NCBI GenBank assembly: GCA_012719455.1
Contig: JAAYAJ010000002.1
Location: forward strand, 929 to 64,928
Length of the DNA: 64,000 nt
Origin: Acidobacteriota bacterium
GTDB taxonomy: Bacteria > Acidobacteriota > UBA6911
Reading direction: 5' to 3'
Shown: one piece after another, positions 16,955 to 58,753 of the stretch
Position numbering within the stretch: position 1 is the first letter of the stretch
Layout of the letters: each line of letters begins with the position of its first letter
Notes under the pieces: model-generated
What the model saw: only the letters and a program-made list of their open reading frames with translations
Database searches by the model: none
What the model was told of the DNA's origin: nothing
Position numbers and translations under genes: made by a program

Positions 16955-17232
16955 CAGTCGTACCTCTTCAAGTGTAGTTATGTTTGTGTGACTGCGATCT
17001 TTTTCAGTGTGCGCGCCTTCCAAACCAAAAGTCAAATCCTATTATCCGAAGAGTTCGTTGTCGCTTCTCGTCCAAGACGGCTAAATATTATCTAAACACA
17101 GCTTTTATTGTCAACAGATATTGAAGATATCCCGAAACATGGTTTTCCGCCGCGTCGGTGGGAATCTTTGACTTGGCGGCAGGAAGCATCTAACATGCCC
17201 CTGTCTGGAACCTGATTCGGGAGATCGCGCCC

Positions 17233-17640
17233 ATGCCCCGGGACGAAAAGGAAAAAACCAAACCCGGCGACGGGAAACCATCTCTTTCACGCAGGGAGTT
17301 CGCCCTCGCCTCGCTGGCCGTGCTGGGGGCTCAACCGCTCTCCACGGCCGAGGATCCGCCGCCGCTGTCGGATGAGGCGCGGGCGATGAAGCTGGTCCTG
17401 GACGAAGGGGTGCGGGAGCGGCTCGAGGAGCGCCACATCACCGAGGAGGACATGCGGCGCGTCCTCTGCCACGCGGAGCAATCGGGCGAAAAACTGTGCC
17501 GCCCCCAGGGGGGGCGATTCCTGGCCAAGCTCCGCATGGCCGAGACCTACTTTTACGTCGAATACGAGCCCCGGGATGGTGCTTTCCGCGTCCGGACGGC
17601 CTACGCGCACCGACTGCTGCTCGAAGGAGACCCCGGATGA
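17233..17640 (+). CDS. Small hypothetical protein; N-terminal Tat-like segment plus a DUF4258-like C-terminal half.
   Basis: SRREFALASLAVLGAQPLSTA resembles a twin-arginine signal. C-terminal ...HITEEDMRRVLCHAEQSGE...YFYVEYEPRDGAFRVRTAY resembles small toxin-like DUF4258 proteins. First gene of a four-gene operon. Confidence 0.45.
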   Translation: MPRDEKEKTKPGDGKPSLSRREFALASLAVLGAQPLSTAEDPPPLSDEARAMKLVLDEGVRERLEERHITEEDMRRVLCHAEQSGEKLCRPQGGRFLAKLRMAETYFYVEYEPRDGAFRVRTAYAHRLLLEGDPG

Positions 17641-17822
17641 CTGATTGGTTCTGCTGCAAGGACAAGGTCGCCATGGAGGAAAAGGAGCTGCTCGTCAGCT
17701 ACATGCTGCTGCGCCAGTTCGTCCCCGGGATGAAGTGCCCCGTCTGCGGCGTGGAGTACCTCACCGAGGAGGTGGTGACCACCATCGTCAACGAGGCTGA
17801 AGACGCCCTCGAACAGAAATAG
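17637..17822 (+). CDS. YgiT/MqsA-type zinc-finger small protein (61 aa).
   Basis: MTDWFCCKDK...GMKCPVCGVEYLTEEV carries CxxC...CPVCG motifs. ATGA overlap with the preceding gene. Start at internal M48 of ORF 17496..17822. Confidence 0.45.
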   Translation: MTDWFCCKDKVAMEEKELLVSYMLLRQFVPGMKCPVCGVEYLTEEVVTTIVNEAEDALEQK

Positions 17823-17829
17823 GACCCGC

Positions 17830-19167
17830 ATGGCCGAAGTCGTTTCGCGAACCGAGAGCCTCTGTCCCCACTGCCTGCGGCGCGTCCCCGCCGAGCGGGT
17901 GGCCGTGGGGGACGAGCTGTTCCTCCGCCGCAGCTGCCCGGAGCACGGCGAGGTGGAGCCCGTGCTGCTCTGGCGCAACCGCACCATCCCCTACTCCCTC
18001 TGGAGCCGCCCCGGGGACCCTTCGGCTCTTCCCCCACCCGATCCGCCCGGAGACTGCCCGCGCCTTTGCGGCATCTGCGCCGGGCACCGGCAGAGCACCT
18101 GCAGCGCCATCGTGGAAATCACCGCCCGCTGCGACCTCCGCTGCCCCGTCTGCTTCGCCGCCTCCGGGCCCGCGGCCGGCCCCGACCCCGACCTGGCCGG
18201 GCTGGAGCGCCTCCTCGGGCGGACGTTCGCGCGGGCCGGGAACTGCCCCCTGCAGCTGAGCGGCGGGGAACCCACCCTCCGGGACGACCTGCCCCTCATC
18301 GTGCGCCGGGCGCACGAGATCGGTTTCGATCATGTCCAGGTCAACACCAACGGCCTGCGTCTCGGGCGCGACCCGGAATTCGCCCGCGCGCTGGCCGATG
18401 CGGGGGTCACCGATTTTTTTCTCCAGTTCGACGGGGTCAGCGACGACGTCTTCCGCCGCCTGCGGGGAGCGCCGCTCCTGGACCTCAAGCTCGGGGCCCT
18501 CGAGCGCTGCCGGGAACTGCAGGTAGGCGTCATCCTCGTCCCGACCCTCGTCAAGGGAGTGAACGACGCCCAAATCGGCGAACTCATCGAGTTCGCCAAG
18601 GCGTGGATGCCGGTCGTGAAGGGGATCCACTTCCAGCCCCAGGCCTGGCTCGGCCGCTACCCGCATTCGCCCCGCAACAACGACCGGGTGCTGATCCCCG
18701 ACATCCTCGAGGCGATCGAGCGCCAGACAGGGGGGGAAATCGAGACAGGGAATTTCATCCCCCCCGGTTGAGAGGAACCCCACTGCTCCTTTTCCGCTCT
18801 CTCCGTGCTGAGAGACGATGGGAGGCTGGTGGCGACCACGCGTTTCGAGCGCGCCGGACCGGCCGGGGACGACGCCGCCGAAAAATCGCGCGCCTACGTG
18901 CGGCGCCACTGGAAATTCGCCGAACCCGGACCCGCTTCCGCCGCCCCGCCGCCCGGTCCGGACAACCTCTTCGAGCGGGTCCGCACCCATGTGCTCTGCA
19001 TCTCCGGCATGGCGTTCCAGGATGCCTGGAACATCGACCTCGAGCGGCTCCGGCGCTGCTGCATCCATGTCGCGAGTCCAACCCGGGGTCTGGTCCCCTT
19101 CTGCGCCTGGTACCTGGTCGACACGCACGGACGCCGACTTTACGGGGAAACCGCCCATGTTCCTTGA
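17830..19167 (+). CDS. Radical-SAM enzyme with an N-terminal zinc-ribbon-like motif and a C-terminal Cys-rich extension. It contains a single in-frame TGA at 18769-18771, so it is either a selenocysteine candidate or a disrupted gene.
   Basis: CPHCLRR...SCPEHG; radical SAM CDLRCPVC; GGEPTL. ORFs 17830..18771 and 18805..19167 are in the same frame. The only stop between them is TGA, and the downstream codons EEPHCSF... are open. Confidence 0.6.
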
Positions 19168-20542
19168 ACAGTGGCTGCACGGCGTCATCCGGTCCGGCCT
19201 TGAAAACGACCCCGGTCCCCGCGCGCGCGTGCAGGCCGGACCCGCCCCGGGGCGCGCCGAGGTGGTGCGGTACCAGGGGGCGTTGCTGGCCCGGGCGGTG
19301 CGCTACGCGGCGGCGCACAGCTCCTTTTACAGGGATCTCTTCCGAAAAAGCGGCATCCGCCCGGAGGAGATCCGCGGGTGCGCCGACCTCGGGCGCCTCC
19401 CATTCACCAGGCAGGAGGATGTGGCCCGCGCCCCCTACCGTTTCCTGTGCCTTTCCCGGGCGCAAATCGAGCGGGTCCATACCTTCGTCACCTCCGGCAC
19501 GACGGGACCCCGGAAGAAGGTTTTCTGGACCCGGGGGGATCTCGGGCGCATCGTCCGTTTCATGGCCGCCGGCATCGGGACGGTGGCCGGCAGGCAGGAC
19601 GTCGTACACATCTGCCTTCCCGACGGCCCTCCTTACAGCCAGGCGGACCTGCTCGGACGCGGGGTGGCCGCCGTCGGCGCCCGGGCGCTGGTGGCCGGCA
19701 CCGGCCGCTCCGCGCCCGAGCACCTGGAGTGGATCCGGCGGCACGGCAGCACGGTGCTGTTCGGCTGCGCCGGTCCCCTCTACCGGCTCACGCGCGAACT
19801 GGAGGCGCTGTGCGACCCGTCCCGGTGCGGGGTGCGCGTCCTCTTTCTCACCGCCGAGTATGTCCCCGCAGCGCGCAGGCGGGAGTTGGAAAGAACCTGG
19901 AAATGCCGGGTGCGGACGCACTACGGGCTCACCGAAATGGGGCTCGGGGTGGCCGTGGAGTGCGAGGCCGGGCACGGTTACCACTTCAACGAAGCCGACC
20001 TCCTGCTTGAGATCATCGATCCCGTGACGCTCGAGCCGGCGGCGCCCGGCGAGGAGGGGGAACTGGTGTTCACCACCCTCAACCGCGAGGCGATGCCCCT
20101 TTTGCGCTACCGCACCGGCGACATCTCCCGCTGGATCCCGGGGCCCTGCCCCTGCGGCGCCCGGAGCCTGCTCCGGTTCGACGCGGTCCGAAAACGCCGG
20201 GAATCGATAGTGACGATCGGCGCGGGAGAGGAGATTCACCCAACGCTGTTCGACGACGTCCTCTACGCCCTCCCCGGGGTGCTGGACTACCGGGTGGAGG
20301 TGACGCGGGACGGGGAACGGCCGCGCCTCGATTTCGGGATCGAGCTGCTTCCGAAAGCGGGGGACACGGCGCACGCCATCGCCGCGCGCCTCCACGGGCA
20401 CCCCCTCGTCCGGCGGCTTCTCCACCGGGGGGAGATGGCGCCCCCGGGGGTGAGCCTCCTGCCGCCGGGAGCGCTGAAAACGGCGGACCGGGCCAAGAAA
20501 CTGGTCGTGGACCGCCGCGACCGACTCAAAGCGCGGGCTTGA
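19157..20542 (+). CDS. Phenylacetate-CoA ligase / coenzyme F390 synthetase-like (PaaK-family) adenylate-forming enzyme.
   Basis: TSGTTGPRKKVFWTRGDL AMP-binding motif; YGLTEMG; C-terminal domain. 11-nt overlap with the radical-SAM gene. Start at internal M114 of ORF 18818..20542. Confidence 0.8.
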   Translation: MFLEQWLHGVIRSGLENDPGPRARVQAGPAPGRAEVVRYQGALLARAVRYAAAHSSFYRDLFRKSGIRPEEIRGCADLGRLPFTRQEDVARAPYRFLCLSRAQIERVHTFVTSGTTGPRKKVFWTRGDLGRIVRFMAAGIGTVAGRQDVVHICLPDGPPYSQADLLGRGVAAVGARALVAGTGRSAPEHLEWIRRHGSTVLFGCAGPLYRLTRELEALCDPSRCGVRVLFLTAEYVPAARRRELERTWKCRVRTHYGLTEMGLGVAVECEAGHGYHFNEADLLLEIIDPVTLEPAAPGEEGELVFTTLNREAMPLLRYRTGDISRWIPGPCPCGARSLLRFDAVRKRRESIVTIGAGEEIHPTLFDDVLYALPGVLDYRVEVTRDGERPRLDFGIELLPKAGDTAHAIAARLHGHPLVRRLLHRGEMAPPGVSLLPPGALKTADRAKKLVVDRRDRLKARA

Positions 20543-21263
20543 CCGCCATGATCGAGGCGCTCCCCCATTTCCGGTCGACGTGCGGGACCATGCTCCCGAT
20601 GTCCCACCCCTTTTCTTCCAGGAACCCGAGGACCTCCCGGGCCCGATAGAGGTGCGTCACCTCCACCTGGATCCGCTCGAAACCGGCCCCGGCGAGCGCG
20701 CGGGCGTATTCCCGCTCCTCGAGCGCCCCTCCGAGACACCCCACCCAGCGGCCCACCCCCGCGCGGATCCCCGCGGGGATGTCGCCCCGGGTGACGATAT
20801 CACAGGCAGCCAGCCGCCCGCCGGGCGCCAGGACGCGGAAAGCCTCGGCCAGCACCCGGCCCTTGTCGACGGAAAGGTTGATGACGCAGTTGGAAATGAC
20901 GACATCGACCGTGCCGTCCCGGAGCGGAATGCGCTCGATTTCGCCCCTGACCAGTTCGACGCCGGCCGTGCCCTTAAGGTTGCGGGCGGCCAGGGCGATC
21001 ATCTCCTCCGTCATGTCCAGGCCGTAGACCCTGCCCCCCGGCGCCACCCGCCGGGCCGCCAGCAGGCAGTCGCGCCCCCCGCCGCTTCCAAGATCCAGCA
21101 CCACGTTCCCGGGCCCGAGCCCGGCCAGGGACACGGGGTCGCCGCAACCGAGCGACACCTGCACGGCCGCCCCCCCCTCCCGCCGGCTCCTCTGGAGCGC
21201 CCGCGCGGCGATCGCCCCGTACCTGCGCCGCACTTCCCCGCCGACATCCATGCCGTCCTCCAT
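20526..21263 (-). CDS. Class I SAM-dependent methyltransferase, arsenite methyltransferase (ArsM)-like.
   Basis: SLGCGDPV...VLDLGSGGGRDC...VYGLDMTEEM...VISNCVINLSVDKGRVLAEAFRVLAPGG carries ArsM-type Cys/SAM motifs. Confidence 0.6.
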   Translation of the reverse strand: MEDGMDVGGEVRRRYGAIAARALQRSRREGGAAVQVSLGCGDPVSLAGLGPGNVVLDLGSGGGRDCLLAARRVAPGGRVYGLDMTEEMIALAARNLKGTAGVELVRGEIERIPLRDGTVDVVISNCVINLSVDKGRVLAEAFRVLAPGGRLAACDIVTRGDIPAGIRAGVGRWVGCLGGALEEREYARALAGAGFERIQVEVTHLYRAREVLGFLEEKGWDIGSMVPHVDRKWGSASIMAVKPAL

Positions 21264-21480
21264 CCGGAGCCGCCGCCAATCCCCGCGGCCCCTTTGGATG
21301 AAACGTTACCATCATGGAGGACGTAATTAAAAGCGATAGGATTGAATGGTTGACAACCTGTCCCCGTTTGTTCCACAGTGGTAGCCGTCCACCCGCACGC
21401 GGATGACGAGGCAATGTTTGTCCATGGGTCAACCCCGAAGACGACACTCATTACATAATATCGAGCGAAGGAGTAACGCC

Positions 21481-22290
21481 ATGTCCGGAGGCAAGAAAAC
21501 CGACAGCACGGAAACGGCTGCCAAAAAGAAATTTACAAGACGCGATTTTCTGGTCACCGGCGGAACCGTGGTCGCGGTCGATGCCCTGATAGCCACGACT
21601 CCCGCCGCTGCGGTCGCCGCGTCCCCCGCGCCACCGCCTGAAAAAGTCCAGGCCTACCCTGCATCCAAGGGGTACCTGGTCTACGACAGCAAGAAATGCA
21701 TCGGGTGTACGACCTGCATGCTCAGCTGCTCGCTGACCCACTACGGGGTGCAGAGCCTCTCGCTGGCGCGCATCCAGATCATACAGGACTCCTTCGGAAA
21801 ATTTCCGACCGACCTGGAGATGGCCCCCTGCCGCCAGTGCAAGTACCCCCCTTGCGTGCAAAGCTGCCCGGTCCAGGCCTGTTTCGTCGACGAGGCCAAT
21901 GGCAACGTCCGCAGGATCGACACCGACAAATGCATCGGCTGCAAGACCTGCCTCAAGATGTGCCCCCAGCAGCCGCACCGGACCGTCTGGAACCACGAAA
22001 TCAAGAAATCCACCAAGTGCGACCTCTGCCTCGAGACCCCTTACTGGAACGAAAAGGGGGGGATCGGCGGCAAGCAGGCGTGCGTGGAATCGTGTCCTAT
22101 GAAAGCCATCAAGTTCGTCAGCGAAATGCCCGACCAGAAGGAAACCGATGGCTATAACGTCAACCTACGCAACGAACATTGGCTCAAGCTGGGGCTGGTG
22201 GACGACAGCAGAATCGTACCGCCTGGATCGCGCAGCATGGGCGGCGGCGCACCGAAAGCCAAAATGCAGGCGCCCAAAGCGAAAGCATAA
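21481..22290 (+). CDS. Tat-exported four-cluster [4Fe-4S] ferredoxin-type subunit (DmsB/YdhX-like).
   Basis: TRRDFLVTGG twin-arginine motif. Four CxxCxxCxxxCP-type motifs. RBS aaggag at 21467-21472. Start at internal M27 of ORF 21403..22290. Confidence 0.8.
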   Translation: MSGGKKTDSTETAAKKKFTRRDFLVTGGTVVAVDALIATTPAAAVAASPAPPPEKVQAYPASKGYLVYDSKKCIGCTTCMLSCSLTHYGVQSLSLARIQIIQDSFGKFPTDLEMAPCRQCKYPPCVQSCPVQACFVDEANGNVRRIDTDKCIGCKTCLKMCPQQPHRTVWNHEIKKSTKCDLCLETPYWNEKGGIGGKQACVESCPMKAIKFVSEMPDQKETDGYNVNLRNEHWLKLGLVDDSRIVPPGSRSMGGGAPKAKMQAPKAKA

Positions 22291-22304
22291 GGAGGAGACA
22301 TATC

Positions 22305-24407
22305 ATGCCAGGCGGATACACAGGTAAGATCTTAAGAGTCAATCTCACGACCAAGCAGGTCAGCACCATTCCCACGGAGAAGTACGTGGAATTCGGCGGC
22401 GGCCACGGCATCGGTTCGGCCGTCTTCTTCGACCTGGTCGGCGACCAGCTCCCGTTCGACGCCTTCGATCCCCGCAACCTCATCATCATGATGGCGTCCC
22501 CCTTCTCGGGCACCTTCATGCCGGGCAGCGGACGGTGCGAAGTCCAGGGGCTGGGGCCGATGCTCTACCCGATCGAGTGGTTCGGCCACAGCAACTTCGG
22601 GGGGCGGTTCACCGCCCAGATGAAATTCGCCGGCTGGGACGGCATCGTCGTGGAAGGCGCCTCGGACAGTCCGGTCTACATCGACGTCATCAACGACCAG
22701 GTGAAGATCGAGGACGCCACCAACGGCGTCTGGGGAATGGACACCTGGGACGCGCAGCAGGAAATCTCGCGCCGTGCCGTCCCCGGCCTCAAGCAGGGCG
22801 AATGGGCCGAACTGGCCCAGAATTGCTTCACCACCCAGATCCCCGCGGTCGTGGCCTGCGGTCCCGCGGGCGAACGCAAGAGCCGGCTGGGTGCGCTGCT
22901 TCACGGCCCGGGCTCCCAGGCCGCCCTGTGCGGATTCGGCGGCGTCTTCGGGTCCAAGAACCTCAAGGCCATCAGCTTCCTCGGCACCGGCAGCGTCCCT
23001 ATCGCCGACCCCAAGGCCTTCATGGACGCCCGGCTCTGGTTCCGCCAGTTCCAGTGGGACGTGGATAACCCGCGCGACGCCGAGATTTTCGAAGGGGGGG
23101 GGTATTCCCTGATCAACGGCGCCCCGAGCGGCGGCAACGTGACCAACGGCGGGCCCAACCGGGTGCCCGCGCGCGCGGCCGCCTGCGCTTCCTGCCCCAG
23201 GGGATGCAAGATGCGGCTTGCCACCGGCGACAGCAACGAGGCGGTATGCGCCGGGACCATGGTGGCCAACGTCGGCGGCGGCGGCATGTTCGCCGCCTTC
23301 GGCCGCAAGCCGGACCCGAACGCCATGCCCACGGCGCTCAGCCAGAAGCTGACGCGGCAGGCCAACGATCTCATGCACCGCTACGGTCTCGGCCATTGGC
23401 AGGTAATGGCCACCCGCGGCTACATCGAAGCCCTGGTGCGCGAAGGCGTCATCGGCAAGGGAAAGCAGATCGATTTCGAGCTGCCCCCCGCGGGAAGCTT
23501 CGCCTACCACGAAACGATGTTCCGGACCATCGCCCTGCGCGAGGGGCCTCTCGGCGCCTTGGCGGCCGAGGGGGCGGCCCGGATGGCCGAAAAGCTGGGG
23601 CGCTACCAGAAGGACGTCTCGAGCGGCATGCTGAGGTTGACCTACTACGGGACCCAGGAGCACTACGATTCCGCCACCCAGGTGGAATGGGGCTACGGCT
23701 CCATCCTGGGGGAGCGCGACCTGATGCTGCACCAGATGGCCAACTACCCGCTGCACTGGATGGCGCAGTCGGGCAACCCCTACCTCGACGCCGAACAGGC
23801 CTCCAAGCTTTACGCCGAGGCGATGGTCCCCTACGAGGACGACCGCTACCTGGTCGATTACGGGGAAGGACCGACGGGGATCTACTCCGATTCCAAGGTC
23901 AAGCAGGTGGCCTGGGTCAAGCACTACGAGAAGTTCTGGATCGGCGCGGGCGGGTTCTGCGGATGGCGCTGGCCGCAGTGCATCACCAACAACACCGCCG
24001 ACCGGCGGGGGGCCACCCCTCATGCGGAGCCGAGGTTCTGGAACGCCGTGACGGGCCAGAACAAGACCTTCGCCGACTACATGGAACTGGGGCACAAGAT
24101 CTTCACCCTCGACCGGGCCATCTGGGCGTTGCAGGGCCGGACGCGGGACATGGAGGTCTTCCCCGACTACGTGTACGACCAGGAAAGCAGGGGCAGCGTC
24201 CAGCCGATGGTGGTCGACGGCAAGTGGACATACGCCACGGGGCAGGGACGCAAGCTGGACCGTGCCAAGGTCGAGGACTGGAAGACCCGCTTCTACAAGT
24301 TCGAGGGGTATAATCCCGCCACCGGGATCGCCACCCGGGAGACGCTTGAGAAGATGGGGATGAAGAAGGTAGCCGACACCCTCGAGAAGCGGGGCAAGCT
24401 GGGCTAG
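22305..24407 (+). CDS. Aldehyde:ferredoxin oxidoreductase family (W/Mo-pterin) enzyme, YdhV-like, 700 aa.
   Basis: MPGGYTGKILRVNLTTKQV...GGGHGIG AOR N-terminal domain. No signal peptide of its own. RBS aaggagg upstream. Start at internal M43 of ORF 22179..24407. Confidence 0.85.
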   Translation: MPGGYTGKILRVNLTTKQVSTIPTEKYVEFGGGHGIGSAVFFDLVGDQLPFDAFDPRNLIIMMASPFSGTFMPGSGRCEVQGLGPMLYPIEWFGHSNFGGRFTAQMKFAGWDGIVVEGASDSPVYIDVINDQVKIEDATNGVWGMDTWDAQQEISRRAVPGLKQGEWAELAQNCFTTQIPAVVACGPAGERKSRLGALLHGPGSQAALCGFGGVFGSKNLKAISFLGTGSVPIADPKAFMDARLWFRQFQWDVDNPRDAEIFEGGGYSLINGAPSGGNVTNGGPNRVPARAAACASCPRGCKMRLATGDSNEAVCAGTMVANVGGGGMFAAFGRKPDPNAMPTALSQKLTRQANDLMHRYGLGHWQVMATRGYIEALVREGVIGKGKQIDFELPPAGSFAYHETMFRTIALREGPLGALAAEGAARMAEKLGRYQKDVSSGMLRLTYYGTQEHYDSATQVEWGYGSILGERDLMLHQMANYPLHWMAQSGNPYLDAEQASKLYAEAMVPYEDDRYLVDYGEGPTGIYSDSKVKQVAWVKHYEKFWIGAGGFCGWRWPQCITNNTADRRGATPHAEPRFWNAVTGQNKTFADYMELGHKIFTLDRAIWALQGRTRDMEVFPDYVYDQESRGSVQPMVVDGKWTYATGQGRKLDRAKVEDWKTRFYKFEGYNPATGIATRETLEKMGMKKVADTLEKRGKLG

Positions 24408-24432: not shown

Positions 24433-24476
24433 GGGGCCGCGGGTCGCGAGTGCGACCCGCGGCCCCTTTTTTATTT
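24433..24476. terminator. Bidirectional rho-independent terminator between the AOR gene (+) and nifS (-).
   Basis: Perfect 15-bp stem GGGGCCGCGGGTCGC gagt GCGACCCGCGGCCCC followed by TTTTTTATTT. Confidence 0.7.
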
Positions 24477-25691
24477 CGCTTCGAGCATCCCGAGCGCATC
24501 CGGATGGGGGGCGTTGACGGCGTTGTCCCAGTAGGGGGAAAGCGTGCGCAGGTTGGCTACGATGCCCGGGAACACTTCGAGCACCCGGTCGATCTCCGCG
24601 TCGGTGGTATAGCGGCTCAGGCTGAAGCGGACCGAGCCATGCACCGCCGTGAAGGGCACTTTCATCGCCCGCAGCACGTGCGAAGGCTCGAGCGACCCGG
24701 AGGTGCAGGCCGACCCGCTCGAGGCGCAGATCCCGTACTCGCCGAGCTGAAACAGCATCCCCTCCCCCTCGATGAAGTGAAAGGAGATGTTCAGGGTGTT
24801 CGGCAGGCGCGGGGCCCCGCCGCCGTTGATCTCGACCGAAGGGATCCTCTCCACCAGGCCCCGCTCCAGCCGGTCGCGGAGGCGCCCGATCCGGGCCTCG
24901 TCCCCCGGCGCGTTGGCCGTCGCGAGGCTGAAGGCCCGGCCGAGGCCCACGATGTAAGGGACGTTTTCGGTCCCCCCGCGCCGGCCCGCCTCCTGGTGCC
25001 CCCCGAGTAGAAACGGACGCATCCGGGTGCCGCGGCGCAGGTAGAGGACGCCCACCCCCTTGGGTGCGTGCAGCTTGTGCCCCGAAAAGGAGAGAAGGTC
25101 CACGTAAGGAAACCCCCGCACCATATCGATGGGCAGCTTCCCCACCGTCTGGGTGGCGTCGGTGTGAAAGACGATGCCCGGGTCGGTCTCCTTGACGATG
25201 CGCGACAGCTGGTCGATGGGAAACACCACGCCGGTCTCGTTGTTGGCGTGCATGATCGACACCAGCAGGGTCTCCGGCGAGAGCGCGCGGATGAACCCCG
25301 GCATGTCGAGATTACCGTTCCGGTCCACCTCCACGTACGTCACCCGGCAGCCGTTTCGTTCCATCTCCCGGCAGACCTCCAGCACGGCCGGATGTTCCAC
25401 CGTGGTCGTGATGATATGTTTCCGGTTCGGGTTGGCGCGCACGACCCCCTGGATGGCGGTGTTGTTGCTTTCAGTCGCGCACCCGGTGAAAAGGATCTCG
25501 CTCGGTTCCACCCCCCCGAGGCAGTCGGCGATCGTCCGGCGCGCGGCGGCGACCGCCTGGCTCGTCCGCCCGGCGGGTTCGTACATTGAACTGGGGTTGA
25601 AATAGTCTTCGGTGAAAAACGGGATCATCGCCTCGTAGACTTCCGGGGCGATCCGCGTCGTGGCGTTGTTGTCAAGATAGATAATATCCAT
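24471..25691 (-). CDS. nifS: Cysteine desulfurase (NifS/IscS, class V aminotransferase).
   Basis: MDIIYLDNNATT...SFSGHKLHAPKGVG (PLP lysine)...SSGSACTSG active-site Cys loop. Confidence 0.9.
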   Translation of the reverse strand: MDIIYLDNNATTRIAPEVYEAMIPFFTEDYFNPSSMYEPAGRTSQAVAAARRTIADCLGGVEPSEILFTGCATESNNTAIQGVVRANPNRKHIITTTVEHPAVLEVCREMERNGCRVTYVEVDRNGNLDMPGFIRALSPETLLVSIMHANNETGVVFPIDQLSRIVKETDPGIVFHTDATQTVGKLPIDMVRGFPYVDLLSFSGHKLHAPKGVGVLYLRRGTRMRPFLLGGHQEAGRRGGTENVPYIVGLGRAFSLATANAPGDEARIGRLRDRLERGLVERIPSVEINGGGAPRLPNTLNISFHFIEGEGMLFQLGEYGICASSGSACTSGSLEPSHVLRAMKVPFTAVHGSVRFSLSRYTTDAEIDRVLEVFPGIVANLRTLSPYWDNAVNAPHPDALGMLEAK

Positions 25692-25697
25692 GCCCGC

Positions 25698-26666
25698 CTA
25701 TACCTCGATCACCCGGATCCGCTCGTCCACCCGTTCCCTCAGGATCCGCTCCACCATCTTTTTCAGCGTCCGGGAGGCGCCGGAGCAGTGGGCGCAGGCT
25801 CCCTGGAGCCGACAGTAGACGATCATCCCCTTGATGTCCACGATCTCGATGTCCCCGCCGTCGAGCTTCAGGGAGGGACGGACGAACTCCTCCACCACCT
25901 TCTCCACCTTCTTCGAAAACTGGTAGGGGGAGAATTCGGCGGGAGGCGGCGCCTCGAGCGATACCAGCGGAAACACCGGCGCCGCCGGGGTGTCGCTCGC
26001 AGCCGCCGTGCTTTCCCCCTGCCAGGCCCGGTCGAGCAGGTCCTGCAGCCCGCCGGGGACATGGTGGCAACTGCTGCAAGCGCCGCCGGCCTTGATGGCG
26101 TTGGTGATCTGCGGGATCGTCCGCAGGTTGAGCTCCTTGATCTTGCGCAGGATGTAGGGTTCGGTCAGGGAAAAGCACTTGCACACCATGCGCCCCTCCT
26201 CGGTATCCCGACCCTGCAGGTCGATACCCAGCGCTTCCAGGTCCACCCCGCGCCGCTGCGCCCAGTTGAAGACCGCCGCTTCCAGCGCTTCCGCGCCCAT
26301 GACGGAGCAGTGGATCTTCTGCTCCGGGAGCCCCCCGAGGTATTCCACGATGTCGCTGTTCTGGATGCTCAGCGCGGAGATCGGGGTGTACTCCCCCTGC
26401 TCGATGATGGAGCACAGCGCCTCCGAAGCGGCGATGGCGGAAGTGCAACCGAAGGTCAGGTATTTCGCCTCGGTGATGATGTCCTGGGTTGGATCGCTGG
26501 GATGGCGCTTGACACGGAAGGTGAACCGCATCGCATCCCCGCAGGCTATCGATCCGTGCTCGCCCATCCCGTCGGGGTTCTCGATTTCGCCCAGGTGGGT
26601 GCCCGGCCTGCCGTGCACCGCGTCCATGAACAGCTGCTTGGTCTTATCGCTGTATTCCCAATCCAT
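25698..26666 (-). CDS. nifU: NifU (IscU-like N-terminal domain, BFD-like [2Fe-2S] middle domain, NifU C-terminal domain).
   Basis: MDWEYSDKTKQLFMDAVHGRPGT...GSIACGDAMRF...C-terminal CxxC motifs. Start at internal M27 of ORF 25698..26744. Confidence 0.9.
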   Translation of the reverse strand: MDWEYSDKTKQLFMDAVHGRPGTHLGEIENPDGMGEHGSIACGDAMRFTFRVKRHPSDPTQDIITEAKYLTFGCTSAIAASEALCSIIEQGEYTPISALSIQNSDIVEYLGGLPEQKIHCSVMGAEALEAAVFNWAQRRGVDLEALGIDLQGRDTEEGRMVCKCFSLTEPYILRKIKELNLRTIPQITNAIKAGGACSSCHHVPGGLQDLLDRAWQGESTAAASDTPAAPVFPLVSLEAPPPAEFSPYQFSKKVEKVVEEFVRPSLKLDGGDIEIVDIKGMIVYCRLQGACAHCSGASRTLKKMVERILRERVDERIRVIEV

Positions 26667-26854
26667 CGTCCGACTCCGCGTGATTGCCAGTAGTTCCGGC
26701 CCGGGCGGCGCCCGGCGTGACACCCATCGGCGACGCCCCACCACCTCAGGCCGGAGGAACTTTATAATATAGCGCTTCGGCGGGCTTCAGGCAAACGTGC
26801 AGGTGGAGGGGAAGCGGCGGGAGTGTGGTAGAATGCCCCAAGCGGGCGGCCCCT

Positions 26855-49237: not shown

Positions 49238-51640
49238 ATGCATGCGCCGAAAAGGTTTCACCTCCATGGTCCCCTCTCCGTCCTGATCCTGTGCTCCGTG
49301 CTCTTTGCCTTCCAGTCCCCGGCCCAGGACGCCGCCCCGACCGAAGGCCGCGCTCTCTACGAAGTCCTGAAGGGATTCGATCTCCAGGGGAAAGCGTCCG
49401 TGAGCAACCTCACGCTCAAGAAAGACCGCGCCGAAATGGTCTTCACCGGCGATTTCTATTTCGCCGCCCCGGCCAACGGCCGGGTCACCGGCGCGGTCTT
49501 CATCGGCAGCGGGAGTTTCAAGGCGGCCGCGCCCCCCATCTCCTATGAAAAAGAGGCCATGGTGCGCTTCATCAACACCGATACGGCCGAGAGCGATTTC
49601 CGCACCGCCGTGCTGCGCTTCAGCGACGACACCTTCGAGCAGATCGGGAAGGGGATGGAGGCGGGGGCCGCGGCCCCCGACGACGCCCGGAAGCTGGCGG
49701 CCGAACTCGAACCAAGGCTGCTCAAGGAGACGGGGGCCAACATCTCCGCGCGCCTGCTGGTTTCCCTGGCAAACGCCGAATCCCCGGGCGTTTTCCTCGC
49801 GCAGTTCGACAAGGGGAGCCGCGGACGGTTCACCTACCTCGTCGACCCGCAGACGCGCCTTCCCAGCTCGGTCTTCGGCATCAACGGGGGGGAAAAGGTG
49901 CTCCTGTTCTCCTACGCCCCGTACTCGTACACCAACGACATGTGGATCGCCACCTATTCCGAGGAGAATTTCGCCAAGAACCAGGCCAGCTATTCCGACA
50001 GCTTCGACCTGGTCGCCCCGCTCCACTACGACATGGAAATCGACGTGCGCAACGCGCGCAAGGTCCTGCGCACCCGGATGCGGATCGATTTCCAGTCGCT
50101 GGCCGACGGACTGCGGGCGATCCCGATGGACGTCAACGAGGGTTTGACGGAGTTCGACAACATCCGGCTCAAGGAGGCGATGCGGGTTACGTCCGCCCGT
50201 TACGAAGGCAGGGACATCCCCTGTCTCCAGGAGGACTGGGAGTCGGGGCTGACGATCCTGCTGCCGAAGGCGATGAAGAAAGGGGAGAAATTCAGCGTCG
50301 AGGTGGCGCTCGAAGGCGATTTCATCGACAACCAGGACACCTTCTTGAACTGCTACTACCCCCAGGACAACAACGGCTGGTACCCGAAGTACGGCTACCT
50401 CAAGCGCTCCACCTTCAACGCCCTGTTCCGCCACGACAAGAACGACCGCGTGGCCAGCATCGGCAAGCTGGTGCGCGAAGGGACCTGGCCCGATTCCACC
50501 GACGGCCTGACCGAATTCCGGATGGAAATCCCGGTGTCTTTCATCTCCTTCGCGGCCGGGAAACTCGTCCGCCACAGCGATCACCGCAAGCTGCAGTTCG
50601 GGGAGATCGATCTCGATTTCTATTCGGTCCCCTCCTCGGTCAGCAGCGTCAAGGAGGATTTCATCCTCGCCGAGATGGGGAACGTCCTGAACTATTTCAG
50701 CGAATATTTCGGCGCGTACCCCTACCCCTCTTTCAAGGCCACCATCCATCCCTTCAACTTCGGCCAGGGATTCCCCACCCTGCTGATGATCCCCAGGACG
50801 GACCAGGCCAACTACGCGGTCTTTTCCTTCATCGCCCATGAAACCGCGCACCAGTGGTGGGGCAACATCGTCGCCTGGCGCTCCTACCGCGACCAGTGGC
50901 TGAGCGAGGGGTTCGCCGAATACTCCGGCATGCTCTACACCGGGTTCCGCGACAGCATGAAAAACCAGCGGGAGCTGATCGACGACGCCCGCTACGTACT
51001 CCCCTTCCGCCCGAAAACCGACCGGGGGATCGGCAAGGAAAAGCTGGCCGAAATCGGGCCCCTCATCCTGGGACATCGGCTGAGCACCCGGAACACGATG
51101 AACGTCTACAGCAACCTGATCTACAGCAAGGGGGCGCTGGTGCTGCGCATGCTCCACTTCCTCTTCTCGGACCCCAACACCGGGTCGGGCCAGCCGTTCT
51201 TCGACATGATGTCCGATTTCGTCAAGCAGTACCAAAACCAGGCGGCCTCCACCGAGGACTTCATGCGCGTGGCCGGAGCGCACTTCGCCAACACGCCGCT
51301 CGGGAAGATGTTCGGGCTGAAGGATCTCGGCTGGTTCTTCCAGCAGTGGGTGTTCGAGGCGAAACTACCCAGCTACCGGATGGAATACAGGATCGAGCCG
51401 GGCGACAACAACTCCGCCGTGGTCACCGGGACCATCCTCCAGGCGAACGCCGGCCCCAGCTGGTTCATGCCGCTCCCCGTCGTCTTCAAGTTCCCGGGGA
51501 ACCAGATGGGGCGCGCGGTGATCTATGCCAACGGGCCGGAAACCGCTTTCAAGATCCCCCTGCCGATGAAACCCAACTCGGTGGAACTGGACCCCGACCT
51601 GTGGATCCTGTCGGAGAAAACCGAAACCAAGAAGAAGTAG
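49238..51640 (+). CDS. Secreted M1-family zinc aminopeptidase.
   Basis: Signal peptide. HETAHQWWGN (HExxH) and WLSEGFAEY (third zinc ligand Glu). 800 aa. Confidence 0.85.
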   Translation: MHAPKRFHLHGPLSVLILCSVLFAFQSPAQDAAPTEGRALYEVLKGFDLQGKASVSNLTLKKDRAEMVFTGDFYFAAPANGRVTGAVFIGSGSFKAAAPPISYEKEAMVRFINTDTAESDFRTAVLRFSDDTFEQIGKGMEAGAAAPDDARKLAAELEPRLLKETGANISARLLVSLANAESPGVFLAQFDKGSRGRFTYLVDPQTRLPSSVFGINGGEKVLLFSYAPYSYTNDMWIATYSEENFAKNQASYSDSFDLVAPLHYDMEIDVRNARKVLRTRMRIDFQSLADGLRAIPMDVNEGLTEFDNIRLKEAMRVTSARYEGRDIPCLQEDWESGLTILLPKAMKKGEKFSVEVALEGDFIDNQDTFLNCYYPQDNNGWYPKYGYLKRSTFNALFRHDKNDRVASIGKLVREGTWPDSTDGLTEFRMEIPVSFISFAAGKLVRHSDHRKLQFGEIDLDFYSVPSSVSSVKEDFILAEMGNVLNYFSEYFGAYPYPSFKATIHPFNFGQGFPTLLMIPRTDQANYAVFSFIAHETAHQWWGNIVAWRSYRDQWLSEGFAEYSGMLYTGFRDSMKNQRELIDDARYVLPFRPKTDRGIGKEKLAEIGPLILGHRLSTRNTMNVYSNLIYSKGALVLRMLHFLFSDPNTGSGQPFFDMMSDFVKQYQNQAASTEDFMRVAGAHFANTPLGKMFGLKDLGWFFQQWVFEAKLPSYRMEYRIEPGDNNSAVVTGTILQANAGPSWFMPLPVVFKFPGNQMGRAVIYANGPETAFKIPLPMKPNSVELDPDLWILSEKTETKKK

Positions 51641-51651
51641 ACACGACGTCC

Positions 51652-51680
51652 GGCCGCGGCGGGCGGCATCCGCCGCGGCC
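51652..51680 (+). terminator. GC-rich hairpin downstream of the M1 peptidase gene (candidate terminator; no U-tract).
   Basis: GGCCGCGGCGG gcggcat CCGCCGCGGCC, 11-bp perfect stem, 12 nt after the stop codon. Confidence 0.4.
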
Positions 51681-51828
51681 CCCTTCCCCCTCGCCCTTTC
51701 CATCAATTCTTGCCACTCCCTCCCCCTTCTGTGGTACAAAGTGCGACAAGGGCCCGGGGCGCAGCCCGACCGTTCGGCGACGGCGCCCCGGTCACGGAAT
51801 GCAGCCACCAAAGGAAAGTCGGAGACCC

Positions 51829-53541
51829 ATGGACAAGAAACTGGCGCCGTTGCTCGATCCGCGCGGGCACCAGGAACGGCCGACCGTTCCCCTGGCGCCC
51901 CGCGGCGGCATCGAGAATCTCAGGCGGGGAAAGATCCTCTTTTACGACAACACCAAACTGGGCTTCTGCAACTACGGCGAAGTCTTCGTCCGCATCCGGG
52001 AGCGCCTGCGCGGACTGGGGATATCGAATTTCGTCGACTACCGGGAAACCGTCCGCGGCAAGGACACCCGGGAACTGGAGGCGTACGCGGCGATGCTCGC
52101 CCGGGAAAAGCCGGCGGCCGCCGTCGTGGCCCTCGGCGACATGGGCACCTCCCCCGCGACCTGCATCGTCACCATCGCGCTGGAGAAGCTGGGCATCCCG
52201 AGCGTCTACATCACCGCCCCCCCCGGCGGGGACCTGGTCGAGGGGGTCGCGGCCTACCGCGCCGGGAACCTCTGCCTGTGCAAGATCGATATCTACCAGG
52301 CGAGCACCCGGGAAGAGGTGCGTGCCCAGGTAGACCTCAAGTGGGACTTCATCATGGAATCGCTCGCGGGGACGCCCGAGCAGGTCCGCGAGGCCGCCCG
52401 CATCGATTTCAAGATGGACCTGGCGCCCCCCGCCGCCGACGGGCTGCTTCCCGTCACCGCGGGGATCGAGCCGAGCGAGGAGAGGGTGTACGAACCTGGT
52501 TGCTACATGGAAGAAATCATGGAGTACCTCGACCGGGAACACCTGGGGGACGGCCTGCCGGTCATTCCCCCGACCGCGGCGCGCCTCGAAAGGATGTTTT
52601 CCTGCTGCCCCTTCGCGCCGGAAACCCCCCTGTGGCACGAGGTCGGACCCGCGGGCAAGGACGTCACTGTCCGCGACGTCGCCATCGCGGCGGTGATGGC
52701 CGGGTGCCGACCGGAGGCGATGCCGGTCCTGGTGGCCGCGTTCCGGGCGATGGCCGACCCCCGGTACAACCTGCTGCAGTCGGTGACGACGTCCCACCCC
52801 GGGGGGAACCTGGTCCTGGTCAGTGGCCCGATCGCCCAGGAGATCGGGATCTCGGGCCGGCAGGGGTGCCTGGGCCCCGGGTATCCCGCCAACGCCACCA
52901 TCGGGCGGGCGGTCAACCTCGTCATCCTGAACGTGTGCCGGGCTGTCCCCGGCGTCTGCGACCTCGACTGCCTCGCCTCGCAAGCGGAATTCACCTACTG
53001 CTTCGCCGAGGAGCCCTCCCTGGCCCAGTGGCCGATGATCAACGAGGAGCGCTGCGACGCCCGGACCACGACCGTCTACGTGCTCAAGGCGGAGCCGCAG
53101 CACGACATCATCGACTTCCTGAGCCTGAACGGCCATGACCTGCTCGACACCCTGATCGACTGCTGCACGACGCTCGGGACCAACAACGCCTACATCCCGG
53201 GGCCGCTGGTGCTGGTCCTGACCCCGGATCACGGGATGATGCTGAAAAATTCGGGGTATACCAAGGACGCCATCCGCGAGCAGGTCCACCTGAGGGCGAC
53301 CCACGACGTACCCATGGTGCGCAACCGCGGGCTGGTCCCGGTGCGCCCCCCGGAATTCGCCCATCGCCACCCGATGCCGGTGACCCGGTCACCCCGGGAC
53401 ATCGAGGTGGTCGTCGCCGGAGGGCGCGGGGGGCATTCGGGCGTCATCCTGCCCTGGGCGTTGCACAGCGAGGGGATCGTCCTGCCGGTGACCCTGCCCG
53501 ACGGCACCCCGGCGCACAGCATCGACCAATTCAGGAAGTGA
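51829..53541 (+). CDS. Conserved hypothetical protein (570 aa), first gene of an operon with an FAD oxidoreductase and a Mo-hydroxylase large subunit.
   Basis: RBS aaggaaag..ggaga before ATG at 51829. Multiple Cys (CC pairs at 259/260 and 445/446). No family recognised with confidence. Confidence 0.5.
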   Translation: MDKKLAPLLDPRGHQERPTVPLAPRGGIENLRRGKILFYDNTKLGFCNYGEVFVRIRERLRGLGISNFVDYRETVRGKDTRELEAYAAMLAREKPAAAVVALGDMGTSPATCIVTIALEKLGIPSVYITAPPGGDLVEGVAAYRAGNLCLCKIDIYQASTREEVRAQVDLKWDFIMESLAGTPEQVREAARIDFKMDLAPPAADGLLPVTAGIEPSEERVYEPGCYMEEIMEYLDREHLGDGLPVIPPTAARLERMFSCCPFAPETPLWHEVGPAGKDVTVRDVAIAAVMAGCRPEAMPVLVAAFRAMADPRYNLLQSVTTSHPGGNLVLVSGPIAQEIGISGRQGCLGPGYPANATIGRAVNLVILNVCRAVPGVCDLDCLASQAEFTYCFAEEPSLAQWPMINEERCDARTTTVYVLKAEPQHDIIDFLSLNGHDLLDTLIDCCTTLGTNNAYIPGPLVLVLTPDHGMMLKNSGYTKDAIREQVHLRATHDVPMVRNRGLVPVRPPEFAHRHPMPVTRSPRDIEVVVAGGRGGHSGVILPWALHSEGIVLPVTLPDGTPAHSIDQFRK

Positions 53542-53573: not shown

Positions 53574-55004
53574 ATGGAAATATACGGTGAATACGATGTC
53601 GTCATAGCCGGCGGGGGGACCTCGGGGGTCGCCGCCGCCATCGCCTCCGCGCGCACCGGCGCGCGTACCCTCCTCGTCGAGCGGCTCGGCACCCTCGGGG
53701 GGCAGATGAACGTGTCCGGGCCGCCGGGGTTCGCCTACGCCTACATGTTCAACCCGCGCCGGGAACAGATCATCGCCGGGATCCTCGAGGAAACGCACCG
53801 GCGGCTGCTCGAGGCGGGGCACGCCCTTCCCCATACCACCCCCGATTTCCGCGTCGGCTACAGCTTCTCCCTGGTGGACCCCGATTACTGGGGCCTCCTC
53901 GTCTTCCAGATGATGCAGGAGAACGACGTCGAACTACTGCTCCATTCCCTGGTCGTGGACGCGGTCATGGAAGGGGACGCGATCCGCGGGGTGATCGTGG
54001 AAAACCCCTCCGGCCGGCAGATCGTGCTCGGCAAGATCGTCATCGACTGCACCGGGGAGGGGGAACTCGCCGCGCGCGCGGGCGCGCCCTATGAACAGGC
54101 TCCAAAGGAGGACCTGGAGCCGCACACGGTCTCCTTCACCGTCGACGGGGTCGACTGGGACAAGGTCCTCGCCTACGTCAAGGAGAACGCGGCCTACGAG
54201 TTCAATGCCATGACCCATCCCTACCTCGGCTGGAGCGAAGAGGAGATCATCGAGAGGATCCGGCGGGTCGAGGATGTGCGGGAGATCTCCAACTTCATGG
54301 GTTATTACACCCTGCGGGACCGCGCGGTGGCCGCCGGGGAGTACCACCCCTACAGCGGCGTCGGCTTCTTCATCCTGCCCCGCGACCACGGGGTTCTGCA
54401 GGCGCACTTCCAGCACTCGTCGCAGGTGGGGAACGCCGACCCCACCGACGTCCGCGACCTGACCCGGTGCGAAATCGAGTGCCGGGCGCAGATCCGGATG
54501 GCCCTGGGCTTCATCCGGCGCTACATGCCGGGGTTCGAGAACTCCTACCTGACGCGCGTCTGCCCGGAGCTGAGGATCCGGGAGAGCCGGCGCATAGTGG
54601 GGGACTACGTCCTGTGCAAGCAGGACGTGGCCGAGGCGCGCAAATTTCCCGACGTGATCGGCAAGAGTTCCTTCGCCAGCGGGGCCAAGCATGTAGCCAC
54701 GGCCGACACCATCTCCTACGAGGGGATCGTCTACCCGAAGGACGGCGGTTCCTACGACATTCCCTACCGCTGCCTGGTCCCCCGGAAAGTTGAAAACCTG
54801 CTGGTGGCCGGAAAGGCGATCTCAACCGACCGGGCCTCCTATGCGCGCTTTCTGCAGCTGACCATGGTCACGGGCCAGGCCGCCGGCGTCGCCGCCGCCC
54901 TCTCGGCCCGGGAAGGGATCACTCCCAGGCAGCTCGAGGCCGATGTCACGGAACTCCAGCGGGTCCTCCAGCAGCAGGGAGCGATCCTGTTCGGAACCCA
55001 TTAG
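53574..55004 (+). CDS. FAD-dependent oxidoreductase (FAD_oxidored/PF12831-like).
   Basis: YDVVIAGGGTSGVAAAIASARTGARTLLVERLGTLGG dinucleotide-binding motif; C-terminal GKAIS...VTGQAAGVAAA. Confidence 0.75.
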   Translation: MEIYGEYDVVIAGGGTSGVAAAIASARTGARTLLVERLGTLGGQMNVSGPPGFAYAYMFNPRREQIIAGILEETHRRLLEAGHALPHTTPDFRVGYSFSLVDPDYWGLLVFQMMQENDVELLLHSLVVDAVMEGDAIRGVIVENPSGRQIVLGKIVIDCTGEGELAARAGAPYEQAPKEDLEPHTVSFTVDGVDWDKVLAYVKENAAYEFNAMTHPYLGWSEEEIIERIRRVEDVREISNFMGYYTLRDRAVAAGEYHPYSGVGFFILPRDHGVLQAHFQHSSQVGNADPTDVRDLTRCEIECRAQIRMALGFIRRYMPGFENSYLTRVCPELRIRESRRIVGDYVLCKQDVAEARKFPDVIGKSSFASGAKHVATADTISYEGIVYPKDGGSYDIPYRCLVPRKVENLLVAGKAISTDRASYARFLQLTMVTGQAAGVAAALSAREGITPRQLEADVTELQRVLQQQGAILFGTH

Positions 55005-55014
55005 CGAGGTTGCC

Positions 55015-58650: not shown

Positions 58651-58753
58651 TCCTTTTCCTCCGGCGGAGGGCACCCCGCCCGCATGATACAGTCGGGGGT
58701 GCGCTCGGCGCCTCGAACTCCACGCGGAAGATCTGCTCCCGGGGCTCGCAGCT

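Follow-up and report, generated by a model that had tools for sequence, protein, structure and literature searches.

A reduced acidobacterial form of the TrsS gene cluster with a predicted selenocysteine codon

The four-gene operon and its products

We analyzed a 64,000-nt stretch of DNA (contig JAAYAJ010000002.1, hereafter the window) from an anaerobic Acidobacteriota metagenome-assembled genome, focusing on four adjacent genes that we call g1, g2, trsS and the ligase gene. From their sequences and those of their relatives, these genes are predicted to be a reduced, selenocysteine-using acidobacterial version of the TrsS cluster, which is known but functionally uncharacterized; they do not represent the discovery of a new system. 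The locus comprises the following features.

17168-17196, + strand: sigma-70-like promoter candidate TTGACT-17-TAACAT (consensus match only), about 37 nt 5′ of g1
17233-17640, + strand: g1, 135 aa
17637-17822, + strand: g2, 61 aa
17830-19167, + strand: trsS, a predicted radical SAM (S-adenosylmethionine) selenoprotein related to Tes, 445 codons, stop codon at 19165-19167
19157-20542, + strand: PaaK-type adenylating ligase (DVU_1553 family), 461 aa, translationally coupled to trsS

An earlier reading of this DNA, made from the letters alone (the sequence-only reading), had described four tightly coupled + strand genes, and the list of open reading frames (ORFs) and the raw sequence confirm every junction: the g2 ATG at 17637 overlaps the g1 stop codon (TGA, 17638-17640) in an ATGA, a 7-nt gap precedes the trsS start at 17830, and trsS overlaps the ligase gene by 11 nt (19157-19167). 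The genes g1, g2, trsS and the ligase gene are thus confirmed as one real, tightly coupled operon, with the promoter candidate lying inside a 197-nt divergent intergenic region. An Rfam scan gave no family above the gathering threshold in the vicinity of the operon. For comparison we fetched 80 species-representative loci (L001-L080), the best-scoring TrsS loci, on which all counts out of 80 are based; further acidobacterial loci (L081/L082 and L083) and one JGI contig were added to these. The order g1, g2, radical SAM gene, ligase gene, with an identical in-frame TGA, recurs in the acidobacterial loci L001-L005, L081/L082 and L083, and the radical SAM and ligase genes are adjacent in 76 of the 80 loci, so that the four-gene arrangement is not due to chance. 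L081/L082 are syntenic with the window across ~20 kb, and g1 is 100% identical to QM330_13055, which occurs on 130 contigs.

The third gene product is assigned to the hidden Markov model (HMM) NF045646, “radical SAM (seleno)protein TrsS”, above its curated cutoff (534.1 bits, cutoff 490), with residues 7-438 covering positions 2-440 of the 441-position model; codon 314, the in-frame TGA, was entered as Cys for this match and for the search of database proteins. Its Pfam matches are PF23545 (Zn_ribbon_HMPTM) and PF04055. The best solved relative is the archaeal tetraether enzyme GDGT-MAS (MJ0619; PDB 7TOL, 260 bits), and the Tes/MJ0619-type architecture suspected in the sequence-only reading is borne out both by this match and by four metal-site motifs, listed here with residue numbers of TrsS.

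17863-17946, + strand: rubredoxin-like motif C12-x2-C15-x20-C36-x2-H39, with C12, C15, C36 and H39 invariant in alignment A1
18055-18087, + strand: N-terminal auxiliary [4Fe-4S] motif C76, C80, C83, H86 (alignment A1)
18130-18153, + strand: radical SAM CX3CX2C motif C101, C105, C108, invariant in alignment A1
18784-19104, + strand: C-terminal auxiliary-cluster segment C319, M394, C410, C425 (alignment with GDGT-MAS)

In GDGT-MAS, the rubredoxin-like motif is C9X2C12X20C33X2H36 and the N-terminal cluster is held by C73/C77/C80 plus a His (PMC9433317); M394 of TrsS aligns with Met439, described there as labile. The alignments show that TrsS keeps the predicted ligands of all four GDGT-MAS metal sites (structures 7TOL/7TOM), namely the rubredoxin-like iron, the N-terminal Cys3His cluster, the SAM-binding cluster and the C-terminal [4Fe-4S] cluster with its labile Met. 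In Tes, the C-terminal cluster covalently traps the substrate radical, and TrsS probably shares this logic of radical capture at a cluster. Family membership is another matter: against the Tes model NF045702, TrsS reaches 321 bits where 450 are required and matches only model positions 2-318 of 486, leaving the C-terminal half of the model unmatched. We therefore rejected TrsS as a member of Tes, and the suggestion that it is a lipid-type radical SAM enzyme gains no support from family assignment. The genomic context of TrsS also differs from that of Tes in not being one of lipid biosynthesis.

The pairing of this enzyme with a PaaK-like adenylating enzyme, likewise proposed before, is substantiated by family, structure and adjacency. 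The ligase matches NF045666, “DVU_1553 family AMP-dependent CoA ligase”, above its cutoff (334 bits, cutoff 300), as well as PF00501, and aligns over its full length with the PaaK structures 4R1L, 2Y4O and 2Y27 (131-160 bits). It shares with PaaK phenylacetate-CoA ligases the AMP-binding core and a TSGTTG-type P-loop, but falls far below the equivalog cutoffs (164 bits against 646 for TIGR02155, 180 against 700 for NF041878) and is placed in its own DVU_1553 family; orthology to PaaK was thus rejected. The adjacency to TrsS spans diverse phyla, and overlap of the two frames is seen outside Acidobacteria as well.

The second gene product, g2, matches PF24292 (DUF7479) at 44 bits (cutoff 27), and lies under the cutoffs of the YgiT finger model (18.5 bits, cutoff 20.2) and of NF045645, the DVU_1557 family (32 bits, cutoff 60). 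By these matches, g2 is a predicted small YgiT/MqsA-like zinc ribbon related to the DVU_1557 family; of the YgiT zinc finger first assigned to it, the zinc ribbon holds and the YgiT identity stays below threshold. Its ligand pattern is CxxD...CxxC in Acidobacteria versus CxxC...CxxC elsewhere.

The first gene product, g1, has no Pfam match. Its residues 46-130 match the last 85 positions (673-757) of NF045663 below cutoff (E 2e-20), a 759-position model named [quoted passage not shown]. The same residues (17368-17622, + strand) are modeled by AlphaFold2 (AF2), from a shallow alignment of database homologues, as a RelE-like alpha-alpha-beta4 domain with a per-residue confidence (pLDDT) of 83-92. 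The top Foldseek matches of the model are RelE, HigB and MqsR, with probabilities of 0.96-0.99, target-normalized TM scores of 0.44-0.60 and weak E-values of ~0.01-0.05. The DUF4258 HMM matches 12 of 28 members of the g1 family weakly and below threshold (best E 6e-4), and Colicin_E5 matches 4 of 28 weakly, so that the earlier impression of a DUF4258-like protein was right as to ancestry. The domain occurs in three architectures: at the C terminus of a ~770-aa flavoprotein in most phyla, as a free ~90-aa protein in Dehalococcoidia and some others, and in an acidobacterial form of 131-148 aa with an N-terminal extension.

In the window this extension reads KPSLSRREFALASLAVLGAQPLSTA/EDPPP, the slash marking the putative cleavage site. 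It carries the twin-arginine motif S19-R20-R21-E22-F23, an uncharged h-region and a putative STA/ED cleavage region (17287-17355, + strand; alignment A4), that is, an S/T-R-R-x-F-L-K motif followed by an AxA-type site: SLSRREFALASLAVLGAQPLSTA/ED. The residues S-R-R-E-F are invariant in A4, which holds the window g1 and nine database homologues, and six further orthologues (L001, L002, L004, L005, L082 and L083), down to 39% identity, share the motif. Tandem LGAHSLP / VGAHSLA repeats give the h-region different lengths in P0123, P0124, P0126 and P0128, proteins of A4 that are otherwise 70-86% identical, and signal peptides tolerate such variation. The Tat (twin-arginine translocation) model TIGR01409 gave no match to the window g1 and 12.7 bits for the L001 orthologue (cutoff 16.7), and is insensitive here since a positive control, the neighboring Tat-signal FeS protein, also failed at only 11.2 bits. 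On its sequence, we accept the predicted leader as a real Tat-type signal, in line with the RR-x-F leader noted from the sequence alone, and the acidobacterial RelE-like g1 may be exported by the Tat pathway. The neighboring acidobacterial molybdenum (Mo) hydroxylase, checked for a Tat signal that would explain the g1 leader, has none.

Seen together, g1 and g2 resemble RelE/MqsR toxins and MqsA/YgiT antitoxins, g1 in its RelE/HigB/MqsR-like model and g2 as a small zinc ribbon near the YgiT threshold. They differ from such systems in sitting in a biosynthetic/redox operon, in the lack of a helix-turn-helix on the g2 zinc ribbon and in the Tat-type leader found here. The two proteins are fused in L067 and L077, and L070 encodes a fusion of flavoprotein, g1 and g2; this speaks for binding of g1 to g2 and for docking of both on the flavoprotein. 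An autonomous toxin-antitoxin module was rejected: toxin HMMs stay below threshold, the pair accompanies TrsS in 72-73 of the 80 loci, and in most phyla the flavoprotein has g1 as its C-terminal domain. The toxin-antitoxin impression left by the two small proteins thus survives as a statement about ancestry, not as one about a free-standing module.

An in-frame UGA in trsS

The trsS frame is interrupted by a TGA at 18769-18771, codon 314, between NFIPPG and EEPHCSF. Because of it, the mechanical ORF list splits the gene into 17830-18771 (313 aa) and 18805-19167 (120 aa); the single 445-codon gene and its 11-nt overlap with the ligase gene exist only if the UGA is decoded. The sequence-only reading missed this codon, on which the overlap it reported depends. 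TGA normally acts as a stop in this host, since other genes of the operon end in TGA. Comparative evidence points to the UGA as a selenocysteine (Sec) codon, predicted to encode Sec314 of TrsS. A table in a 2026 review lists TrsS as a selenoprotein family, citing Haft & Tolstoy 2025 (PMC13188914).

The closest database proteins, 83-99% identical and from Acidobacteria (P0001-P0004, P0030, P0079 and P0080), are recorded as 311-313 aa ending in PPG, and full-length homologues at 44-57% identity read on through the UGA site. Most full-length sequences of alignment A1 place a Cys opposite the TGA (PPGCE..HCSF). Of the 80 loci, 46 have Cys at this position, 29 have some other residue and 5 have a stop, which is TGA every time and confined to Acidobacteriota; three further acidobacterial sequences (L081/L082 and L083) carry the same TGA. 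The codon is therefore kept in all eight acidobacterial orthologues examined, which are 55-83% identical, and in each of them the frame stays open for 117-142 codons after the TGA, with conserved motifs retained. The 131 post-UGA codons have a dN/dS of 0.16-0.32 against five orthologues, which shows that this segment is under purifying selection. Moreover, the first possible restart is a GTG at 18805, and the 11 codons that separate it from the TGA must be translated because they encode the conserved HCSFSA, including Cys319. The predicted Sec314 lies five residues ahead of this conserved cluster cysteine, at a position where GDGT-MAS has Ser and TrsS has Sec or Cys.

A candidate selenocysteine insertion sequence (SECIS) lies just downstream.

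18799-18814, + strand: hairpin CUCUC-CGUGYU-GAGAG, 5-bp stem and 6-nt loop, with the stem beginning 27 nt past the UGA

Folding energy proved ordinary (minimum free energy (MFE) z = 0.3), with the same mean MFE in Sec and Cys loci, and sequence conservation was therefore used as the test. The hairpin is invariant, save for a single Y in the loop, across the eight Sec-type sequences; the five third-codon positions within it are all fixed, and flanking third positions vary. A search of the window and L001-L080 for its 16-mer finds it at the six Sec-type genes and nowhere else, each time with its start 30 nt past the first base of the TGA. The hairpin includes an AGA Arg codon, which is expected to be uncommon at the G+C content of the host, and its spacing and early loop G presumably match the published bacterial SECIS model. 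Given the lack of covariation and the ordinary folding energy, we regard 18799-18814 as a SECIS candidate. UGAGAG occurs twice in this region (18769-18788 and 18809-18814), at the Sec codon and as the 3′ arm of the hairpin; CUCUC at 18799-18803 could base-pair with one or the other. RNAalifold separately predicts a small stem containing the UGA, with one compensatory change in L004.

A scan of the window for other in-frame TGA selenoprotein candidates returned none that was credible. The eight Sec-type loci count as one evolutionary event, since they form one clade and are all of the reduced form described below. Several loci with Gly at column 314 (L015, L036, L055 and L063) carry a Cys four residues earlier (..CPPGGEN..), which suggests a shifted cysteine rather than a loss.

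The TrsS cluster across phyla and in the window

Partners of TrsS were counted by tblastn and unbiased ORF clustering over the 80 loci, and g2 by profile search, with the following results.

Ligase adjoining TrsS: 76/80
g2-like protein: 73/80
g1 domain: 72/80
ArsM/UbiE-like methyltransferase: 57-66 of 80
C-GCAxxG-C-C protein: 55/80
~910-aa molybdenum hydroxylase (MOP-type), within ~6.6 kb: 44/80
XdhC-like protein: 40/80

Compared with NCBIfam, the Acetobacterium locus L010 names the whole cluster, of up to ~10 genes.

NF045668: MOP-type aldehyde oxidoreductase
NF045663: flavoprotein (HdrD/GltD-like)
NF045645: DVU_1557 family small protein
NF045667: DVU_1556 methyltransferase
NF045669: DVU_1555 C-GCAxxG-C-C protein
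NF045646: TrsS
NF045666: DVU_1553 ligase
NF045664: XdhC-family maturation factor
NF045665: DVU_1551 NTP transferase (MocA-like)

Since NCBIfam families name all of these genes, the gene set is already catalogued, with names taken from Desulfovibrio vulgaris (DVU_1551-DVU_1557). The TrsS family is common in Desulfovibrio, Clostridium, Acetobacterium and Dehalococcoidia. A literature search on the D. vulgaris locus tags DVU1551-DVU1559 yielded nothing useful.

The window operon agrees with this neighborhood (NF045645, NF045646 and NF045663-NF045669) in several ways: its radical SAM enzyme and ligase score above the curated cutoffs, it shares the gene order g1-g2-...-TrsS-ligase and the translational coupling, g2 is homologous to the DVU_1557 family and the g1 domain to the C terminus of NF045663. 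It differs from the canonical cluster by the absence of the flavoprotein body, of a DVU_1556-type methyltransferase and of the C-GCAxxG-C-C, XdhC-like and MocA-like genes; tblastn of the window with the canonical families other than those of the operon gave a distant ArsM-like methyltransferase and a distant Mo-hydroxylase 37 kb away, and nothing for the flavoprotein body or for the C-GCAxxG-C-C, XdhC-like and MocA-like genes. Further differences are that the acidobacterial g1 stands alone with its twin-arginine leader, that g2 has the CxxD pattern and stays below cutoff, and that the acidobacterial TrsS is predicted to have Sec where most of the 80 loci have Cys. The four genes that the sequence-only reading treated as a complete set are instead the reduced core of this larger cluster.

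HMM searches of all four proteins and a survey of neighborhoods, two of the checks proposed with that reading, assign the radical SAM enzyme to TrsS and the ligase to the DVU_1553 family, leave g2 and g1 with NCBIfam matches below cutoff, and show a neighborhood conserved across phyla, which is therefore not the case of a well-known family in an unconserved setting. The statement that no characterized pathway could be named stands in that none is characterized; the gene set itself has names, with NF045646 and NF045666 passed and NF045645 and NF045663 matched below cutoff. Overall, the sequence-only reading is partly supported: the enzyme kinds, the likeness to Tes, the ancestry of the small proteins and the leader were recognized, and the Sec codon, the family names and the larger cluster were not.

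The surroundings of the operon in the window contain the following genes.

20526-21263, − strand: convergent ArsM-like methyltransferase, overlapping the 3′ end of the ligase gene by 17 nt
21403-24407, + strand: Tat-signal 4Fe-4S protein (NrfC/YdhX-like), then an oxidoreductase of the aldehyde oxidoreductase (AOR) family (YdhV-like, 243 bits, sub-cutoff)
24471-26744, − strand: NifS cysteine desulfurase (553 bits, above cutoff) and NifU-like scaffold, just past the AOR genes and in the same place in L081/L082
53538-55004: FAD_oxidored (PF12831) gene preceding the Mo-hydroxylase
54943-57426, + strand: Mo-hydroxylase large subunit without FeS domains, 39% identical to the TrsS-flanking one of L005 and 37 kb from the operon
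57436-60178, − strand: HydF and radical SAM/BATS (HydG/HydE-like) maturase genes, adjoining the next gene
61760-63760, − strand: [FeFe]-hydrogenase-like domain fused to a histidine kinase (Fe_hyd_lg_C + HisKA + HATPase_c)

The methyltransferase scores 245 bits against the ArsM subfamily (cutoff 263) and 89 bits against NF045667 (cutoff 155); its N terminus is shortened, and the three Cys motifs with which ArsM binds metalloids (GCG-P, SNCV and GCLGGA) are all present. It occupies the same position in L003, L005 and L081/L082, and lies several kb away, beside an ArsR-type regulator, in L083 and the JGI contig; in the window, no ArsR gene adjoins it. As its location differs in this way, its membership of the system is uncertain, and it is possible that it takes the place of the DVU_1556-family enzyme found in the canonical cluster. 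The genes at 21403-24407 probably encode a periplasmic tungsten/molybdenum aldehyde oxidoreductase pair. This pair of YdhV-like AOR and Tat FeS protein lies downstream of the TrsS operon in the window, L001, L005, L081/L082 and the JGI contig, and an 814-aa Mo-hydroxylase is found near the operon in L001, L005, L083 and the JGI contig. Farther away, the hydrogenase-kinase fusion looks like a sensory hydrogenase of the two-component sensor type. Two long + strand ORFs, 49238-51640 with an M1 peptidase domain and 50854-53541 with no Pfam match, overlap by ~790 nt in different frames, which may reflect a shadow ORF or a frameshift.

Proposed function and competing explanations

Taken together, the explanation that fits best overall is that the operon is a minimal acidobacterial TrsS cluster comprising a Sec enzyme, a PaaK-type ligase and domesticated g1 and g2, along with the mechanism set out here, and we hold this combined account to be rather probable. 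In that mechanism, the ligase would activate a carboxylic acid as an acyl-AMP or acyl-CoA, and the 5′-deoxyadenosyl radical generated by TrsS would abstract a hydrogen from an unactivated carbon of the activated substrate. The resulting carbon radical would be captured at the C-terminal cluster, as in Tes, and Sec/Cys314 would serve as an extra soft nucleophile, ligand or radical partner, leading to a C-S, C-Se or C-C bond. The g1 and g2 proteins would act as an adaptor, which elsewhere is tethered covalently to an NAD(P)H/FAD/FeS/CCG flavoprotein, and the tethered flavoprotein is probably an electron or thiol-disulfide partner. The recurrence of the cluster beside Mo/W aldehyde oxidoreductases suggests that its substrate or product belongs to aldehyde/carboxylate metabolism, or to the maturation of those enzymes. 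Taken alone, the joint TrsS-ligase mechanism is tentative, and we would sooner doubt it than rely on it.

Several observations weigh against this account. Covariation is absent from the SECIS candidate, whose folding energy is ordinary (above); ARAGORN detected no tRNA or tRNA-Sec in the 64-kb window, and no Sec machinery was found among its scanned ORFs. The Sec/Cys314 column is not universal, 29 of the 80 loci having Gly, Ala, Arg or another residue, so that residue 314 would modulate rather than define the chemistry and cannot be essential to the core of the family. With the flavoprotein and the C-GCAxxG-C-C, XdhC-like and MocA-like proteins missing, the proposed electron partner is absent in Acidobacteria. 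The twin-arginine leader of g1 is hard to reconcile with a cytoplasmic adaptor that partners SAM- and ATP-dependent enzymes, and the linkage to aldehyde oxidoreductases may be plain synteny.

Among the alternatives, the one that survives best is a maturation or accessory system for Mo/W aldehyde oxidoreductases, in which TrsS, the ligase and a methyltransferase would alter the pterin cofactor or supply an S/Se ligand, with flavoprotein-g1-g2 as redox partner. Its appeal lies in the neighborhood: the canonical genes lie between MOP (NF045668) and the XdhC-like (NF045664) and MocA-like (NF045665) maturation factors, the full set is present in 30 of the 80 loci, and an 814-aa Mo-hydroxylase and/or a YdhV-like AOR with Tat FeS subunit flank the acidobacterial loci. 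A pterin-methylating role was also once assigned to MJ0619, and the JGI annotation of homologues still says so; this activity was, however, not reproduced (PMC9433317). Moreover, the core of g1, g2, methyltransferase, TrsS and ligase occurs without a Mo-hydroxylase within 5.5 kb in at least 13 loci, for example in Dehalococcoidia, the nearest Mo-hydroxylase in the window is 37 kb off, and XdhC and MocA are accounted for by MOP itself. We judge this explanation unlikely.

A role of TrsS as a bacterial tetraether or membrane-spanning lipid synthase, coupling two lipid tails, possibly for acidobacterial branched glycerol dialkyl glycerol tetraethers (GDGTs), with the ligase activating fatty acids, is more doubtful still. 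The N-terminal 310 residues of TrsS are homologous to GDGT-MAS, the C-terminal cluster motifs with the labile Met are kept, the host is an acidobacterium, and bacterial Tes homologues have been reported (PMC13459092). Against this stand the low score and partial coverage of the Tes model (321 bits against 450, model positions 2-318 of 486 only) and the stretch between the two C-terminal GDGT-MAS matches, which is shorter and poorly conserved in TrsS. In addition, the neighborhood has no lipid-biosynthesis genes, the partners being redox, methyltransferase and cofactor proteins, and the family is common in the Desulfovibrio, Clostridium, Acetobacterium and Dehalococcoidia named above.

It is very improbable that TrsS, the ArsM-like methyltransferase and the PaaK-type ligase make up a third radical-SAM/ArsM-type pathway forming a carbon-metalloid or carbon-chalcogen bond (As, Se or S). 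Organoarsenicals are built by two such pairs of a radical SAM enzyme and ArsM, ArsS/ArsM for arsenosugars and ArsL/ArsM for arsinothricin, and ArsS itself is a (seleno)protein (TIGR04167); the likeness thus lies in a radical SAM (seleno)protein paired with an ArsM-like methyltransferase. We kept this pathway in view because, of the three cysteines with which ArsM binds As(III), DVU_1556-family methyltransferases retain two (94% and 90%) and the window methyltransferase all three, and because two relatives have an ArsR-type neighbor. In contrast, TrsS is unrelated to ArsS and ArsL past the radical SAM core, the window methyltransferase is on the opposite strand, and TrsS clusters have no conserved arsenic resistance genes, an ArsR-type regulator standing by the methyltransferase in two acidobacterial loci only. 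If this pathway existed, a methylated soft atom held on Sec/Cys314 next to the C-terminal cluster would capture a Tes-like substrate radical formed at an unactivated carbon of the carboxylic acid that the ligase had activated, and yield an acid with a methylseleno, methylthio or dimethylarsino substituent, such as a precursor of the arsenolipid type.

Finally, that the TGA is a true stop, leaving a truncated or split radical SAM gene or a pseudogene beside an independent toxin-antitoxin or secreted-toxin/immunity pair, is scarcely credible: gene callers do give a 313-aa protein plus a 110-120-aa fragment that GTG 18805 could start, and g1 combines a RelE-like fold with an export signal next to an MqsA/YgiT-like g2, but the TGA stands at the same codon in eight orthologues with the frame open for 117-142 codons beyond it, the HCSFSA codons with Cys319 lie between TGA and GTG and so must be translated, the post-UGA dN/dS is 0.16-0.32, g1 and g2 are found together with TrsS in 72-73 of the 80 loci, from various phyla, and g1, unlike a free toxin, is usually fused to the flavoprotein. 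The pseudogene or split-gene reading of trsS was rejected on the conserved TGA, the open frame and the dN/dS.

As a minimal TrsS cluster, the acidobacterial four-gene version would be the smallest natural form of the system, which makes it convenient for reconstitution, and the Sec reading would be useful for correcting the truncated annotations of acidobacterial homologues. TrsS would be one of few radical SAM selenoproteins and is closely related to the enzyme by which the C(sp3)-C(sp3) bonds of archaeal tetraether lipids are made. The product of TrsS and the ligase would extend the scope of radical-capture-at-cluster chemistry, and this chemistry could explain why the cluster is kept in many anaerobic phyla beside molybdenum/tungsten aldehyde oxidoreductases.

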